From the IMG/VR virus record IMGVR_UViG_2711768037_000005, positions 3,040 through 67,039 of that record: DNA of 64,000 nucleotides; one strand, given 5' to 3'. Shown piece by piece: positions 2,022-9,969 of this stretch. A program made the translations under genes and the position numbers. Below the pieces are notes generated by a model. That model had not been told where the DNA came from, did not search any database, and was given only the letters and a program-made list of their open reading frames with translations. Source of the stretch: a virus. Lineage: Duplodnaviria; Heunggongvirae; Uroviricota; Caudoviricetes. Every line of letters starts with the position of its first letter. Position 1 is the first letter of the stretch.

Positions 2022-3362
2022 ATGACAGAACTTTGCCATACAGGACGCGGGCTGTCCGAAGAATTTGATGAAGATTTTCAGAACAGATTGACGGCCTATT
2101 TTTGTCGTGATCACGAGTTTCTTACTCGTGCGGGAGATCTTGTTGTGCCTAGCCAATTTGCCAATGCGGCCAATGCCATATTGGTTAATATGGTTTCGGG
2201 CTATTATCGTATGTACAAGAGCGCGCCCTCTTCATCTGCAATTCTGGATATGCTTAAGCGTGCGAAACGCGATAAGACTATCCGTGAGGAACTATTCGCC
2301 GATGTTGTTGCTGCGTTTAAGCGCATTCTTGCAGAAAAATTGTCCGATACCTCGTACATGGTTGACCAGGTATCAACCTTCGCAAAAAGCGTAGCGTTTG
2401 ATGATGCTCTGATTAAGGCTGCTGAACTGAAAGAGAAAGGCGACTTTCAGGGGGCGATGGCAATCATGGCCAAGGTTCAGCAGATTGGATCGAACGAAGC
2501 GACCGGAATCTATGACTACTACACCTCCGCAAGTGAGCGATTGAAAGCGCGTGAATATGAGGCTTCAGAGGAGTATGTGCCAAACAGCATTACAACTGGA
2601 CTCCCTCTGCTCGATAGGTTGCTGTACCAAAAAGGCTGGGCGAAGCGTGAAATGGTGCTCTTCATGGGGTTCGCTAAATCCGGTAAATCGACCGCAATGG
2701 GTGAGTTTTCCATAAACGCAACGCTTGCTGGCTACAATGTTCTGTATCTCTCGCTGGAGGTTCACACCAACATTTTGTCCGACCGTTTTGATGCAAGATT
2801 GTCGGAGACGGAAATGTCCAAGTTGGTGGAACGGCGCGATGAAGTTCATCGTAAGTTGGCAGAGTTGGGAGCCTCTAAGGGGATTGGTAGTTTGTGGGTT
2901 GTTGAGCGTCCGTCAGGAAGTATGTCACCGGCAGATCTGGACCGTATGCTTAACAGTATGAAAGCCAATGGCATGGTGCCTGACATGGTTGTTGTCGACT
3001 ACGCAGATTTGATGCGTGCCAGTTATGACCTTCGTGATGATCGCGCCAACATTCGTAGTATCTACACCGATTTACGTGCTCTTTATGACAAGCATAACGT
3101 TGCTGGGATCACGGCATCGCAGACAAACCGTGAAGGTGGCGCGTCAGAAGTTGCCACAATGATGCACGCTGCTGACAACATCGAAAAAGTACGTATTGCT
3201 GACCTGGTAATAACGATCAATAAAACCGAAGAAGAAGAAGCGAAAGGAGAGGCTCGTCTCTACTTTGCCGGTTCACGTAACCAGCAGGGAGGGATCAGCA
3301 TTCGCGTTAAACAAAACCTCGAACAAATGCGCTTCATTCAGCGAATCTTAGACGTTACCTAA
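2022..3362 (+). CDS. DnaB-family replicative helicase (RecA-fold C-terminal domain)
   Basis: 446 aa; Walker A GFAKSGKST followed by LYLSLEV (DnaB 'SLEM'-like), Walker B-like MVVVDYADL; immediately upstream of primase; conserved AAAGGAAAGCACATG initiation region. Confidence 0.7.
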   Translation: MTELCHTGRGLSEEFDEDFQNRLTAYFCRDHEFLTRAGDLVVPSQFANAANAILVNMVSGYYRMYKSAPSSSAILDMLKRAKRDKTIREELFADVVAAFKRILAEKLSDTSYMVDQVSTFAKSVAFDDALIKAAELKEKGDFQGAMAIMAKVQQIGSNEATGIYDYYTSASERLKAREYEASEEYVPNSITTGLPLLDRLLYQKGWAKREMVLFMGFAKSGKSTAMGEFSINATLAGYNVLYLSLEVHTNILSDRFDARLSETEMSKLVERRDEVHRKLAELGASKGIGSLWVVERPSGSMSPADLDRMLNSMKANGMVPDMVVVDYADLMRASYDLRDDRANIRSIYTDLRALYDKHNVAGITASQTNREGGASEVATMMHAADNIEKVRIADLVITINKTEEEEAKGEARLYFAGSRNQQGGISIRVKQNLEQMRFIQRILDVT

Positions 3363-3443
3363 AAAATAAGCGTGGAGAACACCTCCACGCTTGATTCATT
3401 GGTGAAACAACTTTTCTTTTGCCAAACCACAAAAGAAAAACAC

Positions 3444-6021: not shown

Positions 6022-7340
6022 AAAAGTTGATCGCACTTAAGCATAAGCTGGACGAAATGAAAGCTATGGGAACCAATGCAAAAAAAGAGGCATTGGCCAA
6101 CATGGATGACTTTGAACAAAGCATGGTTTCATTGATGCTCAACCCTTTCATCCGTTTTGGGGTAAAGAAATACAAAGTGGCAGAGCCGCTTAGTGAGTCC
6201 GTCCCAAGTGACGAAAAAGCCATTGATATACTGAATAAGCTGGCCTCTCGCGAGCTGACGGGGAACGCAGCAATAGCAGCTGTTGAGTCTATCGTGGCGT
6301 CAATGTGCGCCGATGGGCAGGACGTGTTCCGTCGTTTCCTCTTAAAAGACCCGAAAGCAGGTGTTGGGATTAGCCTATGCAACAAGGTTTTTGAAAATCC
6401 CATTCCGAAATTCGAGGTGCAGCTGGCGTCACCGTATAAAGAAAAAGGCGACAAATACCCCTTCAAGCCAAATGCTAAAGCAAAATGGCCGATGATTGGC
6501 AGTCTTAAGCTCGATGGTTTGCGAGTAATTTGCGAGGTTATTGTTGACGAGGAAGAGGTTAACTTCCTTTCTCGTACTGGTAATCCAATCACGTCTCTCG
6601 ATCACCTAAAGCCAGCCATGCTCGAATTAGGCAAACTTTCAGGCCACAAACACATCTTCTTCGATGGTGAAGGAACTGCCGGTTCATTTAACCAGTCCGT
6701 ATCTGCATTGCGCAAAAAGAACGTGCAGGCAATTGGCGCTATTTATCATGTTTTCGACTTCTTCCTACCGGAATGGCGAGCACAGGCTAAATCCAAAGAG
6801 TATGCAAAGACAGGTATGAAGCTGAAAGAGCGCCTGGCTATGCTGGTGGCGTTGTTCAAAAACGATCGCAGTGAAGGCTACACACAAGACATTCACCTGC
6901 ATCCGTTCTATATCATCCATAGCCACGAAGACTTCATCGAACGCTTCATGAAACGCCTGGACGATAACGAAGAAGGGGAGATGGGCAAAGATCCGAACTC
7001 TGTTTACGAGTTTAAACGTACCCGCAGCTGGTGGAAGTTAAAAGACGAAGATTCAGAAGATGGTGAAATTATCGACTTTGAGCCGGGCGATCCGGACTCT
7101 GGTTTTGCCAACACGCTTGGAAAAATTGTTATTCGTCTTGAAAACGGCGTCATCGTTCGTGCGAGCGGTATTAAGCATAAATATCTGGACGAGATCTGGA
7201 ACAACAAAGAGAAGTACCGTGGTCGTATTGTTGAGGTTCATTGTCACGAGAAAACACCGGATGGCAGCTTACGCCACCCACGACTGAAATGGCCGCGTTG
7301 CTTACGCGATACAGAAGATCGAATCGGAGATAAAGAATGA
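6018..7340 (+). CDS. DNA ligase (ATP-dependent type, by size)
   Basis: 440 aa; adenylation motif GSLKLDGLRV (KxDG); size fits phage ATP-dependent ligases rather than ~670 aa NAD-dependent LigA. Confidence 0.65.
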   Translation: MKKLIALKHKLDEMKAMGTNAKKEALANMDDFEQSMVSLMLNPFIRFGVKKYKVAEPLSESVPSDEKAIDILNKLASRELTGNAAIAAVESIVASMCADGQDVFRRFLLKDPKAGVGISLCNKVFENPIPKFEVQLASPYKEKGDKYPFKPNAKAKWPMIGSLKLDGLRVICEVIVDEEEVNFLSRTGNPITSLDHLKPAMLELGKLSGHKHIFFDGEGTAGSFNQSVSALRKKNVQAIGAIYHVFDFFLPEWRAQAKSKEYAKTGMKLKERLAMLVALFKNDRSEGYTQDIHLHPFYIIHSHEDFIERFMKRLDDNEEGEMGKDPNSVYEFKRTRSWWKLKDEDSEDGEIIDFEPGDPDSGFANTLGKIVIRLENGVIVRASGIKHKYLDEIWNNKEKYRGRIVEVHCHEKTPDGSLRHPRLKWPRCLRDTEDRIGDKE

Positions 7341-7517
7341 TGCTCGGCTGGATGATTGCATTTTTAGCAGTTGGTTTTTTCATAGGTATTGTGGTGATGT
7401 CCAGTTGCATCAATGACTACATTAAAAGCGGTGTTATAGAAAGACGCGGTCGTATTTATCGCATTGTAGAAATAACCAACACCCTGAAGGAGATTAAGGA
7501 TGATCGTATTAAGTAAA
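7338..7517 (+). CDS. small membrane protein (59 aa)
   Basis: ATGA overlap with ligase stop; N-terminal hydrophobic helix MMLGWMIAFLAVGFFIGIVVM; C-terminal motif GRIYRIVEIT shared with neighbouring small ORFs; below the 60-aa ORF-track cutoff. Confidence 0.4.
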
Positions 7518-7860
7518 CGGGAGAAGGAAACGCTTCATGAAATCAGTAAGTGGCCGGAGTTCCCTGAGTACTGGAAGCCTAAAACGCGAGCTTAGTTAGA
7601 GCGTTTAGGGTTGGTTGCAAACGTTTCTGAAACGTGGTGTTCGGCCAACTACCAGTTAACTGATAAAGGGAAAGTATTGCTACAGCAATTAGTAGAATCA
7701 GGAGCGTTAAAATGATTCCATATATCTCATTAGCTTTTATGGGGCGCTTCCTTATCGGCTTCGGCATCTGTCGTGACTTAATTAAGCAGGAACTTAAAAC
7801 CAAAACACTGTGCATCGGAAAGCGTGTGTATCGGGTAGTTCATGAAACAAAGGTTAGAAA

Positions 7861-8151
7861 ATGAGCAATTTAACTTCTTGGGACCGGTGGTTGGCCACCT
7901 ATTTCTTAGCGGCCGGAGTCGCATTCGCCTTTTACGTAGGTCAGTTAGTCGTAAAACTGTTGCTGATTAAATTTGCTAGTCATAAACGTATCGATGATGG
8001 TCTGTGGCGTCTTGGCACCCTGGTGGAAACTCGCTACGGGCAACTTAAGGAGAACGAAACCATTACTATCCAAGCGAAACGATTCACTGCCACCATCACA
8101 AGAACACCTAGTCGTAGAGTGGCCTTGATCAAAAAAGTTACAACCGAATAA
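7861..8151 (+). CDS. small membrane protein
   Basis: 96 aa; predicted N-terminal TM helix (YFLAAGVAFAFYVGQLVVKLLLI). Confidence 0.45.
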   Translation: MSNLTSWDRWLATYFLAAGVAFAFYVGQLVVKLLLIKFASHKRIDDGLWRLGTLVETRYGQLKENETITIQAKRFTATITRTPSRRVALIKKVTTE

Positions 8152-8918
8152 AAACATATCGATAAGTGTTTACTTACTTATCCTTTGTGTATAAGATGAC
8201 TTTGTTTTCGTTGAGACGCGACTGTTTGAACTTAAATACAAGTGCAAACGAAGAAGTCTATCTGGCAGTAGCCTAATAAGCCAAACACCAGCGAGGTCAG
8301 TTTCCAGCCTCGTTACCGAAATGGGACACACTGAGCGAGTGTGATTGCAGAACGCAGGAGGGAACATGAGTGTTCCCTCCGATGAAGTAACAAAATGGGC
8401 GGTCGGTATATTTTCAACTCCATATGACTCCCGGATTCTTAGCCACTGACCGCCCATTCTGTTACGTCATTTTGTTCAATTATGTCGTTTATACTGGGTT
8501 AAAAAGCGGCGACGTAGCCCGGCTGGTATGGTTAGCCAGCACACAACGTTGAGGCCATTACATTTTTATCAATTCTAAGGTTCTATTCACAGAGATACCG
8601 GCGAGCGTTGATATGTAACATGTTGGGCAAACATTTAATCGGAGTAGTGGCCTCAACATTGTGAAGACGGGATTGTTGTGTAGGTTTAACCACTGTTGCC
8701 TGTTTTCACAACAAATGATTCCATACATCACATTGTATAAATTACAAAGTAGGTGCTGTCCTCAGAAACATCATCTACTTAAAGATTTAGCCTTCTATTG
8801 AGCGAAGTCGAAAGCGTCTGGCACTAACGAAAAGTGCAAGTAGCGGTGCGTTTCCTGGCAGAAACTAACACCGCCGCGATTAGCACTGTTGAGTAATAAA
8901 TACTGTCAGTGCTGAATT

Positions 8919-8993
8919 GATGGTGTAGCTCAGCGGTAGAGCAGTTGGCTGTTAACCAACTGGTCGGTGGTTCGAATCCACCCACCATCGCCA
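8919..8993 (+). tRNA. tRNA-Asn (anticodon GTT)
   Basis: cloverleaf traced by hand: acceptor GATGGTG/CACCATC, D-arm GCTC-AGCGGTA-GAGC, anticodon arm GTTGG-CTGTTAA-CCAAC, T-arm GGTGG-TTCGAAT-CCACC, encoded CCA. Confidence 0.85.
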
Positions 8994-8998
8994 ATTTA

Positions 8999-9085
8999 GG
9001 GGAGTTAGTCCGTAGAGGTAGCGGTGTAGACTGTAAATCTACTGTCATGGCGACTCGGGTGGTTCGACTCCATCACTCCCCACCA
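8999..9085 (+). tRNA. tRNA-Tyr (anticodon GTA), long variable arm
   Basis: acceptor GGGGAGT/ACTCCCC; anticodon arm GTAGA-CTGTAAA-TCTAC; long variable arm; T-arm GGTGG-TTCGACT-CCATC; encoded CCA; D-arm atypical. Confidence 0.7.
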
Positions 9086-9089
9086 AATT

Positions 9090-9165
9090 GCCGGTTTAGC
9101 TCAGTTGGTAGAGCGGCTGCCTTGTAAGCAGGATGTCAGCGGTTCGAGTCCGTTAACCGGCACCA
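9090..9165 (+). tRNA. tRNA-Thr (anticodon TGT)
   Basis: acceptor GCCGGTT/AACCGGC; D-arm GCTC-AGTTGGTA-GAGC; anticodon loop CTTGTAA; T-arm AGCGG-TTCGAGT-CCGTT; encoded CCA; one mismatch at the base of the anticodon stem. Confidence 0.75.
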
Positions 9166-9656
9166 ACATAATATTGAGAACATTGGCGTAACGGGTTCAT
9201 ATCCCAATTTATGAATAAATGTTGCGTTGCCGCGTGACAACCAGTGTTCTCAACATTGTGGTGAATGCACAGGCTGATGTGCCGCAACTACAGTAGTGCG
9301 CGCTTTGCGGGGCTTGCTACAACCCTGTGTCGGAGATCAGCGCCGACCATCACAATTTGGCTCTCTTGCAACAGCATAACGCTGAAATATGTCCAATCTG
9401 GTGCGGCCTGTTCACCCGCCGTTAGCTCCACGAAACGGAGCGCACAACAGGAAAGAGCATTGAGAACCGCCGACTGCCCTGTTTGAAGCGTAAGTCCGTG
9501 CAAACGTCATACAGTGCTCTTTTCGTTGTGGTTGATGCGCAGACTGATGCGCGGAAAGAAATGCCCCAGCGACACACGAGGCGAGTTCACACACTGCATT
9601 GCAGTCAGTAGCCGGGGTCGCTAAGCCGGAGATCAGTACCGGTAACCACAACAATT

Positions 9657-9743
9657 GGAGAGTAGGGAGCATGGTGCTCAAGCGGTCTTGAAAGCCGTCC
9701 CATTGCGCAAGCGATGATGGTTCGATTCCATTACTCTCCGCCA
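9657..9743 (+). tRNA. tRNA-Ser-like (anticodon TGA), type II with long variable arm
   Basis: acceptor GGAGAGT/ACTCTCC; anticodon arm GCGGT-CTTGAAA-GCCGT (two G-U pairs); T-arm GATGG-TTCGATT-CCATT; encoded CCA; D-arm short and atypical, so could be degenerate. Confidence 0.55.
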
Positions 9744-9744
9744 G

Positions 9745-9824
9745 ACACAGCGTTGAGCGGTTTGGCCTTTTAATCAACCAGATTAAGACTCCGCTAACAT
9801 AAACCAAACCGCTCAACGCTGTGT
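9745..9824. repeat. perfect 21-bp inverted repeat hairpin (ACACAGCGTTGAGCGGTTTGG ... CCAAACCGCTCAACGCTGTGT) immediately 3' of tRNA-Ser
   Basis: arms read directly; ~38-nt loop; one of a family of (A/G)TTGAG...CTCAA hairpins in the tRNA region. Confidence 0.7.
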
Positions 9825-9969
9825 GTGAAATTCCACATATTTTATACATATCCATTTACGCAATTTTTTATTGTTCTTTCATACATTACTCTTATATTTT
9901 ATTGTCGTTTTTTAACTGCTAAAATCGTATCGATTTTAGCTAAAGTTTATCGTTAAAGGAGTAACGATT

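Follow-up and report, generated by a model that had tools for sequence, protein, structure and literature searches.

What occupies the space between the transfer RNA (tRNA) genes of a phage-plasmid when long inverted repeats recur there and no convincing gene is to be found? The question is raised by a 64,000-nucleotide (nt) stretch of DNA from a virus of the Caudoviricetes (IMG/VR record IMGVR_UViG_2711768037_000005, positions 3,040 to 67,039), called here the window, in which positions 8152-9969 (1.8 kb) hold only short, overlapping, unconserved open reading frames (ORFs). Within this region four tRNAs lie on the + strand, strung head to tail with three kinds of non-tRNA module that we designate H, S and X. 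H is a hairpin with a stalk of 18-27 base pairs (bp), bounded by CACAAC...GTTGTG and carrying an interchangeable loop (copies A, B, C and D). S is a cloverleaf-shaped domain, present twice, that is closed by GUUGUGGUG/CACCACAAC and contains a 5' and a 3' hairpin, and X is a segment with two small hairpins. We have found that the hairpins around the four tRNAs are real, evolutionarily maintained RNA structures, parts of a modular non-coding element that many temperate phages of enterobacteria have in common. The tRNAs and modules are listed below, with fold z-scores computed against dinucleotide shuffles.

8542-8663, + strand: H-A, CACAAC + GTTGAGGCCATTAC ... GTAGTGGCCTCAAC + ATTGTG; z -5.5; a member of the covarying H alignment
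8919-8993, + strand: tRNA-Asn (GTT), by ARAGORN and by the Rfam tRNA model (75.5 bits)
8999-9085, + strand: tRNA-Tyr (GTA), by ARAGORN and Rfam; missing in Cyrano, P1 and D6
9090-9165, + strand: tRNA-Thr (TGT), by ARAGORN and Rfam
9167-9260, + strand: H-B, CATAAT + ATTGAGAACATTGG ... CCAGTGTTCTCAAC + ATTGTG; z -3.7
9255-9356, + strand: S1, closing stem AUUGUGGUG/CAUCACAAU, 5' hairpin GCACA-GGCUGA-UGUGC, 3' hairpin GUCGG-AGAUCAGCG-CCGAC
9357-9442, + strand: X, hairpin GCGG (9403-9406) / CCGC (9416-9419) and hairpin GCUCC-ACGAAAC-GGAGC (9425-9441)
9443-9530, + strand: H-C, CACAAC-A-GGAAAGAGCAUUG ... CAGUGCUCUUUUC-GUUGUG; z -2.7; two G.U pairs and one bulged A
9525-9652, + strand: S2, closing stem GUUGUGGUU/AACCACAAC, 5' hairpin GCGCA-GACUGA-UGCGC, 3' hairpin GCCGG-AGAUCAGUA-CCGGU
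9657-9743, + strand: tRNA-Ser (TGA), by ARAGORN; shape like that of a selenocysteine tRNA
9746-9823, + strand: H-D, CACAGC + GTTGAGCGGTTTGG ... CCAAACCGCTCAAC + GCTGTG; z -10.1; the last conserved element of the array

The case for selection on RNA structure is carried by comparison with 13 annotated relatives and with 70 IMG/VR loci having the same tRNA-Ser 3' end (handles of the form L003 denote single loci). When 107 intervals in 82 loci were delimited by the flanking hexamer motifs alone, pairing over the inner 14 nt was bimodal: 61 of the 107 have 12 pairs or more, and of the 46 that remain 44 have 5-9, about the level of chance. Among 39 distinct pairs of H arms, aligned with the bulged A removed, both sides have changed at 12 of 20 positions (112 cells); none of 500 shuffles reaches the observed value, and controls in which the partner was slid give 2-8. 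These double changes between H paralogues (TTGAGGCC, TTGAGAAC, GGAAAGAGCA, GGTAAGGGTA, GATAAGATCA and others) are not an artefact of selecting on pairing. In 19 S domains, over the closing stem and both hairpins, both-side changes occur at 10 of 19 positions, against 0 of 500 shuffles and 0-4 in slid controls, and a single S interior, the S4 module, reads GUGGUG..CGCCAC in one context and GUGAUG..CAUCAC in another. A preliminary description, made from the letters of this DNA, had pointed to a paired change between the two S copies of the window (GCACA/TGTGC versus GCGCA/TGCGC) and argued from it for selected RNA structure. The pair is truly compensatory, with alignment columns 24 and 36 holding G-C in 15 sequences and A-U in 4, and the broader argument stands as well, the stems being conserved in P1, D6, SSU5-like phage-plasmids and lambdoid phages. 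A covariance model (R1) built from 19 S domains, none of them from the window, finds the window exactly twice, at 9255-9356 (81.8 bits, E 2.8e-18) and 9525-9652 (76.7 bits, E 5.4e-17).

The strand was judged from the wobble pairs of the stalks, which comprise 88 G.T pairs versus 24 A.C mismatches (counts that are not independent). At one stalk position 24 of 39 members have U.G, where the opposite strand would make mismatches. This asymmetry, the orientation of the tRNAs and that of the STnc100-like matches described below therefore point to a + strand RNA.

The four stalks differ in detail. A repeat finder gave arms at 8542-8561 / 8644-8663 for A (90% complementary), 9164-9186 / 9241-9263 for B (83%) and 9742-9765 / 9804-9827 for D (96%, with a perfect 21-bp core at 9745-9765 / 9804-9824); for C it gave 9452-9462 / 9512-9522, which two G.U pairs and the bulged A extend to 9443-9530. 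Stem lengths are 23 bp for A and B, 18-19 for C, 27 for D and 27 for H0, a hairpin upstream of the array, with at most two mismatches. The inverted repeats reported earlier are thus all present, including the perfect 21-bp pair, although the coordinates given for C were slightly short; the (A/G)TTGAG...CTCAA core proposed for them holds for A, B and D and is lacking in C, and the base common to all four is CACAAC...GTTGTG (CACAGC...GCTGTG in D). H-B begins at the CCA end of tRNA-Thr and has a T-arm-like GGGTTCATATCCC in its loop, and H-D begins at the CCA end of tRNA-Ser. At window positions 9512-9524, and in the H 3' arms of L006, L007, L057, ES2, HC6 and P1, the sequence reads UGCUCUUUUC, UGCUCUUACC or UGCUCUUUCC, which resemble the boxA of lambda nutR (CGCUCUUAC) and of rrn (UGCUCUUUAACAA).

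The S domains account for two further motifs that had been described as separate modules. The repeats are there (9242-9287 versus 9512-9557, 74%; 9331-9355 versus 9627-9651, 76%); they are the 5' and 3' ends of S and not modules in their own right. S2 ends 4 nt ahead of tRNA-Ser, its closing stem is present in the minimum-energy fold of 9160-9832, and it shares 72% identity with its counterpart in Cronobacter phage ES2. S1 leads into X, and the non-tRNA segment noticed after the first CGGAGATCAG copy proved to be X (9357-9442) followed by hairpin C. The topology of S is tRNA-like: a 9-bp closing stem is followed by 3 nt and a hairpin, and the last hairpin abuts the 3' strand as a T arm does. 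The window copies have AGAUCAGYR where the T loop would be; they are tRNA-shaped, and their sequence is not tRNA-like.

The second X hairpin, GCUCC-ACGAAAC-GGAGC, is identical in every X copy recovered from phage-plasmids and lambdoid phages, the hairpin itself being the search pattern. At least 120 loci in IMG/VR have it and, among the matches listed, X almost invariably leads into a C(A/G)(C/T)AAC hexamer and the beginning of an H stalk. A scan of genome contigs with an over-strict pattern gave 5 loci (Kluyvera, Klebsiella, Raoultella, Kosakonia). By inspection the first X hairpin covaries (GCAG/CUGC, GCCAG/CUGGC, GCUGG/CCAGC, GCGG/CCGC), and another small X helix has A-U in 14 sequences and G-C in 11. 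RNAalifold recovered just two short hairpins from 25 X sequences because MAFFT had shifted the variable stems.

How widely is this architecture shared? Plasmid p09EL50 of E. coli O104:H4 and 'phage CMS-2020a' both match the region at 95% identity, and Salmonella phage SSU5 has 75% identity over 8300-8678; judged by these identities the window is therefore an SSU5-like phage-plasmid, the context that had been presumed for it, and parts of the region are common to P1, P7 and D6. Among relatives the spacer between tRNA-Thr and tRNA-Ser ranges from 8 nt (Cyrano) to 705 nt in steps of whole modules. A repeating grammar is followed: CACAAC, then H (arm, variable loop, arm), then GTTGTG-RTG, then the S interior, then CAY-CACAAY, and finally the next unit or a tRNA.

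A sensitive BLAST search with the Thr-Ser spacer recovered X, H and S from lambdoid phages whose hosts are Cronobacter, Klebsiella, Enterobacter and Escherichia. In four such records that were examined, X-H-S comes after the antiterminator gene (Q, or what is presumed to be its equivalent) and a tR'-like terminator, and before holin; it follows tRNAs in ST16-OXA48phi5.2 and Klebsiella phage 6 and has no tRNA nearby in ES2 and ENT47670. In siphovirus HC6, H-S is found upstream of tRNA-Ile. In this broader set the sequence hardly varies in the H arms (AGGUAAGAGCAUUG / CAGUGCUCUUWCC) or in the S closing stem (GUUGUGGUG / CACCACAAC), and the H loop (28-140 nt) and the S interior have been swapped for many unrelated sequences. 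With near-constant arms and closing stem around replaced interiors, X-H-S therefore behaves, in these alignments, as a scaffold with two stem-bounded variable slots.

Some of the interiors point to a characterized family of small RNAs (sRNAs). STnc100 and PasD1/PasD2 are Hfq-associated prophage sRNAs validated by Northern blot, and PasD is reported to be a structural homologue of STnc100 and a neighbour of Q and a sialic-acid esterase (PMC8550237; bioRxiv 10.64898/2026.05.13.724894). The gene order is pasD-esterase-pasA (bioRxiv 10.64898/2026.05.13.724894), and one STnc100 copy lies 75 nt downstream of stx2 (PMC12370729). The Rfam model of STnc100, RF02076 (gathering score 47 bits), gives sub-threshold but specific matches of 23.8-42.6 bits to S domains of relatives:

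L006, 2374-2546: 42.6 bits
L024, 4327-4495: 41.3 bits
D6 (L004), 3266-3386: 39.6 bits
P1 (L003), 3183-3302: 33.4 bits
ES2 (L084), 2604-2802: 23.8 bits, E 0.004

R1 also finds the STnc100-like intervals in L006, L024, P1 and D6, at 28-35 bits. In STnc100 the closing helix (..GGUGAAU.. / ..CACC..) encloses a 5' hairpin, a middle part that varies, and a 3' hairpin placed directly against the closing strand; the window S domains have the same three helices. The STnc100/PasD neighbourhood is alike as well, with tRNAs, antiterminator Q and a sialate O-acetylesterase (window 9970-11883). The 3' hairpin differs, reading GGAGAUCAG in the window S and CCGGGAGGCACCCGG in STnc100. The canonical STnc100 copies inspected have their own TTGACT.. 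promoter-like site and terminator, whereas S in the window has neither, stands twice in tandem and is fused to X, H and tRNAs. Some lambdoid contigs hold two canonical STnc100 copies, separated by 232 nt in L208 and by 2.1 kb in L230. We file the window S domains as non-members of STnc100/PasD because they lie below the gathering score and have no promoter or terminator of their own; they appear to be distant relatives of STnc100, and the relation to PasD follows the cited preprint.

How might such an array be expressed? A simple scan of 2.8 kb (7300-10100) found 0 sigma-70-like promoters, versus 4.4 expected from shuffles, and no terminator-like site on the + strand; for sigma-54 and sigma-70 promoters inside X or H there was no consistent match by eye and none in the scan. 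That the array has neither a promoter nor a terminator is consistent with transcription together with the operon that precedes it, and the array seems to depend on this upstream ligase operon to be transcribed. In P1 the homologous tRNAs sit within the C1-controlled ban operon; literature searched on that operon, its tRNA and dicF, and P1 transcriptomes yielded nothing relevant.

We lean, with moderate confidence, towards a polycistronic precursor of tRNAs and small RNAs in which the stalks and closing stems are processing and insulation elements; what we infer here is the co-transcription, each of the cleavages and whatever the freed RNAs may do. The inverted repeats would be helix arms in a long untranslated + strand transcript, each unit being closed by its own 5' and 3' ends, and these closed units would serve host RNA-maturation enzymes as punctuation. 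The long, near-perfect H stalks would be cut by RNase III, near-perfect duplexes of 20-27 bp being its substrates in, for example, the processing stalks of ribosomal RNA (rRNA) and the intergenic sites of T7. RNase P would cleave at the tRNAs, in the case of tRNA-Ser setting the 3' end of S2, and might cleave the tRNA-shaped S units too; the tRNAs and perhaps S would also be targets of RNase E, which together with exonucleases would trim the remainder. The stalks would also insulate adjacent folds and block 3' exonucleases. Mature tRNAs and discrete small RNAs would result, with the S RNAs and perhaps the H loops as payload, and by analogy with STnc100 and PasD the S RNAs may be regulatory. 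The suggestion of processing sites or small stable RNAs in the preliminary description becomes more plausible because S is related to modules matched by the STnc100 model. We regard the structural and comparative findings as firm and offer the mechanism as a reasoned proposal.

Several results weigh against the precursor account or the structures on which it builds. In the H stalks 95% of cells are paired, a percentage that is inflated because the alignment was picked on pairing. Energy leaves the choice of strand undecided, as 9160-9832 folds to -248 kcal/mol on either one; of the single hairpins, A, B and C favour the + strand (C by 9 kcal/mol), whereas D and H0 fold slightly better on the - strand. 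GUUGUG can pair backwards, closing H, or forwards, closing S, and cannot do both unless there is a second CACAAC copy. Several relatives do have a second (C)ACAAC copy that allows the H and S helices together, and where the two pairings differ the forward one is compensated (GCUGUG..CACAGC in L006 and L007). The window S copies give no match to RF02076 even at E <= 10, and R1 finds no canonical STnc100 locus at E <= 1, so that S is linked to a validated sRNA only indirectly. X or H lies upstream of 0 of 93 canonical STnc100 copies, and thus X and H are not required for the STnc100 sRNA.

A broader and more tentative possibility is that X-H-S is a widespread, previously undescribed RNA scaffold in temperate phages of enterobacteria. 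H, as a leader/trailer processing stalk, and S, as a tRNA-shaped platform on its closing stem, would each present exchangeable payloads, from tRNA-like fragments to RNAs of the STnc100/PasD type, which would be swapped by recombination at the conserved arms and expressed via host enzymes of tRNA and rRNA maturation; STnc100 and PasD would then be tRNA-derived offshoots. If the structured-RNA reading is right, the plp/upl region of the P1 ban operon, and a corresponding stretch in hundreds of clinical phage-plasmids, would be re-annotated as structured RNA in place of protein genes. A single architecture would join phage tRNA arrays, the post-Q region of lambdoid and Stx-type phages, and the STnc100/PasD sRNAs of pathogenic E. 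coli and Salmonella. Those sRNAs may then stem from tRNA-shaped modules, new ones arising by payload exchange inside conserved stems.

The flanks of the array, and the tRNAs themselves, add further features:

8353-8384, + strand: small perfect hairpin GGAGGGAACA / TGTTCCCTCC on the 5' side of the array
8381-8471, + strand: long hairpin H0, 27-bp stem and 37-nt loop; -55.3 kcal/mol, z -7.3
8658-8712, + strand: short closed S-like domain ATTGTGAAGAC ... GTTTTCACAAC, after H-A at the S position of other units

At the place of the small hairpin, relatives have other self-complementary sequences (GGATAGGGCATAG/CTATGCCCTATTC in L007, GGAGAGGGCATG/CATGCCCTCTCC in L009). H0 is kept in all SSU5-like relatives, and D6 has an analogue with other arms at L004 2169-2255. 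The short S-like domain folds weakly in the window alone (z -0.9); relatives have GTTGTGAAGACRGG..CCTGTTTTCACAAC, a stem of 14-18 bp.

That the cluster holds four tRNAs, as first described, is confirmed by ARAGORN, which calls none of the window H, S and X units a tRNA. tRNA-Asn, tRNA-Tyr and tRNA-Thr also pass the gathering score of RF00005; tRNA-Ser passes ARAGORN only. The latter tRNA, tRNA-Ser(UGA), measures 87 nt, and both its D stem and its variable arm are long. The only Rfam model to match it is that of tRNA-Sec, at 42.3 bits where the gathering score is 47, and in the D6 record the amino acid of its counterpart was not called by tRNAscan-SE; it may be an unusual, allo-tRNA-like serine tRNA. 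The first tRNA slot holds Asn or Arg depending on the relative (L014, L015, L042, L050 and others), Tyr is present or absent before Thr without a hairpin module, and in some IMG/VR relatives a tRNA whose anticodon is CAT lies about 430 nt downstream of Ser. In the window at gathering score, and in 8100-10100 at E <= 10, Rfam gave the tRNAs and chance microRNA-like matches on the long hairpins. Weak sub-threshold matches to transfer-messenger RNA (tmRNA) models (12.9-27 bits) lie upstream of the tRNAs at window 8152-8327, L003 1975-2079 and L087 2234-2343; the one in P1 adjoins the annotated 'dicF-like region', covering its last ~20 nt. These are probably chance matches or tRNA-like fragments.

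Directly after hairpin D, the ORF at 9970-11883 has the domains DUF1737-SASA-DUF6645 of a prophage sialate O-acetylesterase (NanS-p-type), the kind found in lambdoid and Stx prophages between the genes of the PasD and PasA sRNAs. This module follows hairpin D in only 3 of 82 loci (the window, L001 and L016). Just past it, 2.3 kb downstream of the array, 12092-13195 encodes a tyrosine recombinase of 367 amino acids (Phage_integrase; Phage_int_M below cut-off), and the segment beside the recombinase varies among relatives, being the esterase, Gp49 with glutaredoxin, or hypothetical genes.

Could the hexamers and hairpins instead act as DNA? They would then be recombination sites, attC-like or acting as folded single strands, with the modules as cassettes that are moved perhaps by the 12092-13195 recombinase. 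We consider this unlikely, although of the rival accounts it survives best. Relatives differ by whole modules whose junctions fall at hexamers (9171/9443 in L010, 9449/9651 in L008/9), homology with most relatives stops exactly at 9823, after the GCTGTG of H-D, unrelated sequences replace H loops and S interiors, and an integrase gene lies 2.3 kb downstream. The hexamer triplets covary (CACAAC..GTTGTG..CACAAC versus CGCAAC..ATTGCG..CGCAAC in D6), and their ..AAC / GTT.. outline recalls the R''/R' boxes of integron attC sites, which are likewise imperfect inverted repeats of 60-140 nt with variable centres and cassette-like boundaries. The attC boxes RYYYAAC/GTTRRRY and the array's (A)CACAAC / GTTGTG(R) share AAC/GTT, with the Y/R rule broken at one symmetric position. 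However, the stalks are near-perfect (20 positions with 95% pairing and no more than one bulged A) and have no counterpart of the unpaired central spacer or extrahelical bases of attC. The excess of G.U over A.C and the conserved U.G wobble fit RNA and not DNA, and recombination sites leave the covariation of helices inside S unexplained. Other junctions lie inside the repeated 3' hairpin of S (9356/9627 in L011/12) and fit ordinary homologous recombination between repeats. No integrase was seen in the 5-kb stretches examined around the lambdoid copies, and just two downstream contexts follow hairpin D in 82 loci. Shuffling of modules by recombination at the conserved arms is itself likely.

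Somewhat less probable is that the modules are decaying, functionless remnants of tRNA genes and their flanks in a hot spot of tRNA gain and loss. tRNA content does vary, as the Asn/Arg first slot and the presence or absence of Tyr illustrate. Motifs resembling a T arm, with a stem of 5 bp and a UUCRANN loop, are present in 18 of 101 distinct H loops, where shuffled sequences would give 0.25, and 5 of 71 S slots have them too. Some S slots outside the window hold canonical D and T arms, and ARAGORN calls one of them tRNA-Arg with a 39-nt insertion. Against this, the pairing of the stalks and S helices has been maintained through double substitutions. The second X hairpin does not vary from one phage family to another, lambdoid phages with no nearby tRNA (ES2, ENT47670) still have the units, and related modules match an expressed sRNA family.

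We give rather less weight to the idea that the hairpins are cis-acting transcription signals (boxA-like Nus sites or put-like RNAs) that shield an untranslated operon from Rho and terminators. There are indeed 1.8 kb of untranslated RNA here with no internal promoter, the lambdoid units of the phages read in detail come right after a tR'-like terminator, and in the commonest H type the 3' arm has the sequence UGCUCUUACC or UGCUCUUUCC, within which a recurrent U.U mismatch of the stalks preserves GCUCUUU, the base pair not being restored. The boxA-like string (GCUCUUAC / GCUCUUU) is nevertheless absent from A, B and D and replaced in many H types. Where present, it is hidden within a helix of 20 bp, whereas proteins bind boxA in single-stranded form, and in lambdoid phages Q already renders late transcription resistant to terminators.

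That the hairpins are copies of a dispersed miniature mobile element, similar to a miniature inverted-repeat transposable element or a repetitive extragenic palindrome, is very improbable and was rejected: inverted repeats with conserved ends and variable interiors would suit such an element, but the arms vary and stay complementary, the opposite of transposase-bound ends, and a motif-plus-pairing scan of the whole 64-kb window confines the H-type hairpin to 8542-9823.

The P1 record annotates the opposite strand of this DNA. What is homologous to 9154-9461 carries the minus-strand genes plp (putative lipoprotein) and upl there; H-B is ~91% identical to P1 69719-70023, and L003 2575-3144, which equals P1 (NC_005856) 69472-70041, spans both genes opposite to the H/S/X modules. 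Variable sites at codon positions 1/2/3 number 26/28/35 in plp and 5/12/10 in upl, without third-position bias, and the homologues contain frameshifting indels of 1, 7 and 10 nt as well as in-frame stops. Least credible of all, and rejected, is a reading in which small minus-strand proteins are encoded and the repeats are incidental, for although P1 is annotated so and the window has minus-strand ORFs of 44-147 amino acids, these are not conserved across module variants, codon positions, indels and stops speak against coding, and plp overlaps tRNA-Thr; to judge from these alignments, plp and upl of P1 are probably mis-annotations.

How does the array compare with systems that are already known? 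Its tRNAs and the STnc100/PasD family are known already. Neither Rfam 15 nor the literature that could be searched has the H family, X, the X-H-S order or the two variable slots, nor the tandem form seen here, which has no promoter and is fused to tRNAs. GOLLD, ROOL, YrlA, RtT, DicF and C4 gave no Rfam match in the window (gathering threshold) or in 8100-10100 (E <= 10), and RtT gave none in the relatives searched. GOLLD and ROOL are large, conserved, structured RNAs borne by phages and prophages next to tRNAs, and their function is not established; the units here differ in being ~300 nt long and modular with exchangeable inserts, and in having Enterobacteriaceae hosts. The array can be likened to the stable RNAs of the T4 tRNA region (species 1 and 2), to E. 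coli RtT and to 3'ETS-leuZ, all of them non-tRNA RNAs between or after tRNAs that are released from a tRNA precursor by tRNA-processing enzymes. The stalks in turn resemble the RNase III stalks that flank 16S and 23S rRNA and the T7 intergenic sites, in that a leader/trailer helix of at least 20 bp stands by a stable RNA and paralogous hairpins form a family within one transcript. They differ from rRNA stalks in enclosing short variable loops (28-140 nt) and not a large RNA, and from the T7 sites in having no internal loop. With stems of 18-27 bp, the window hairpins are predicted to offer RNase III the continuous duplex of ~20 bp or more that marks its substrates.

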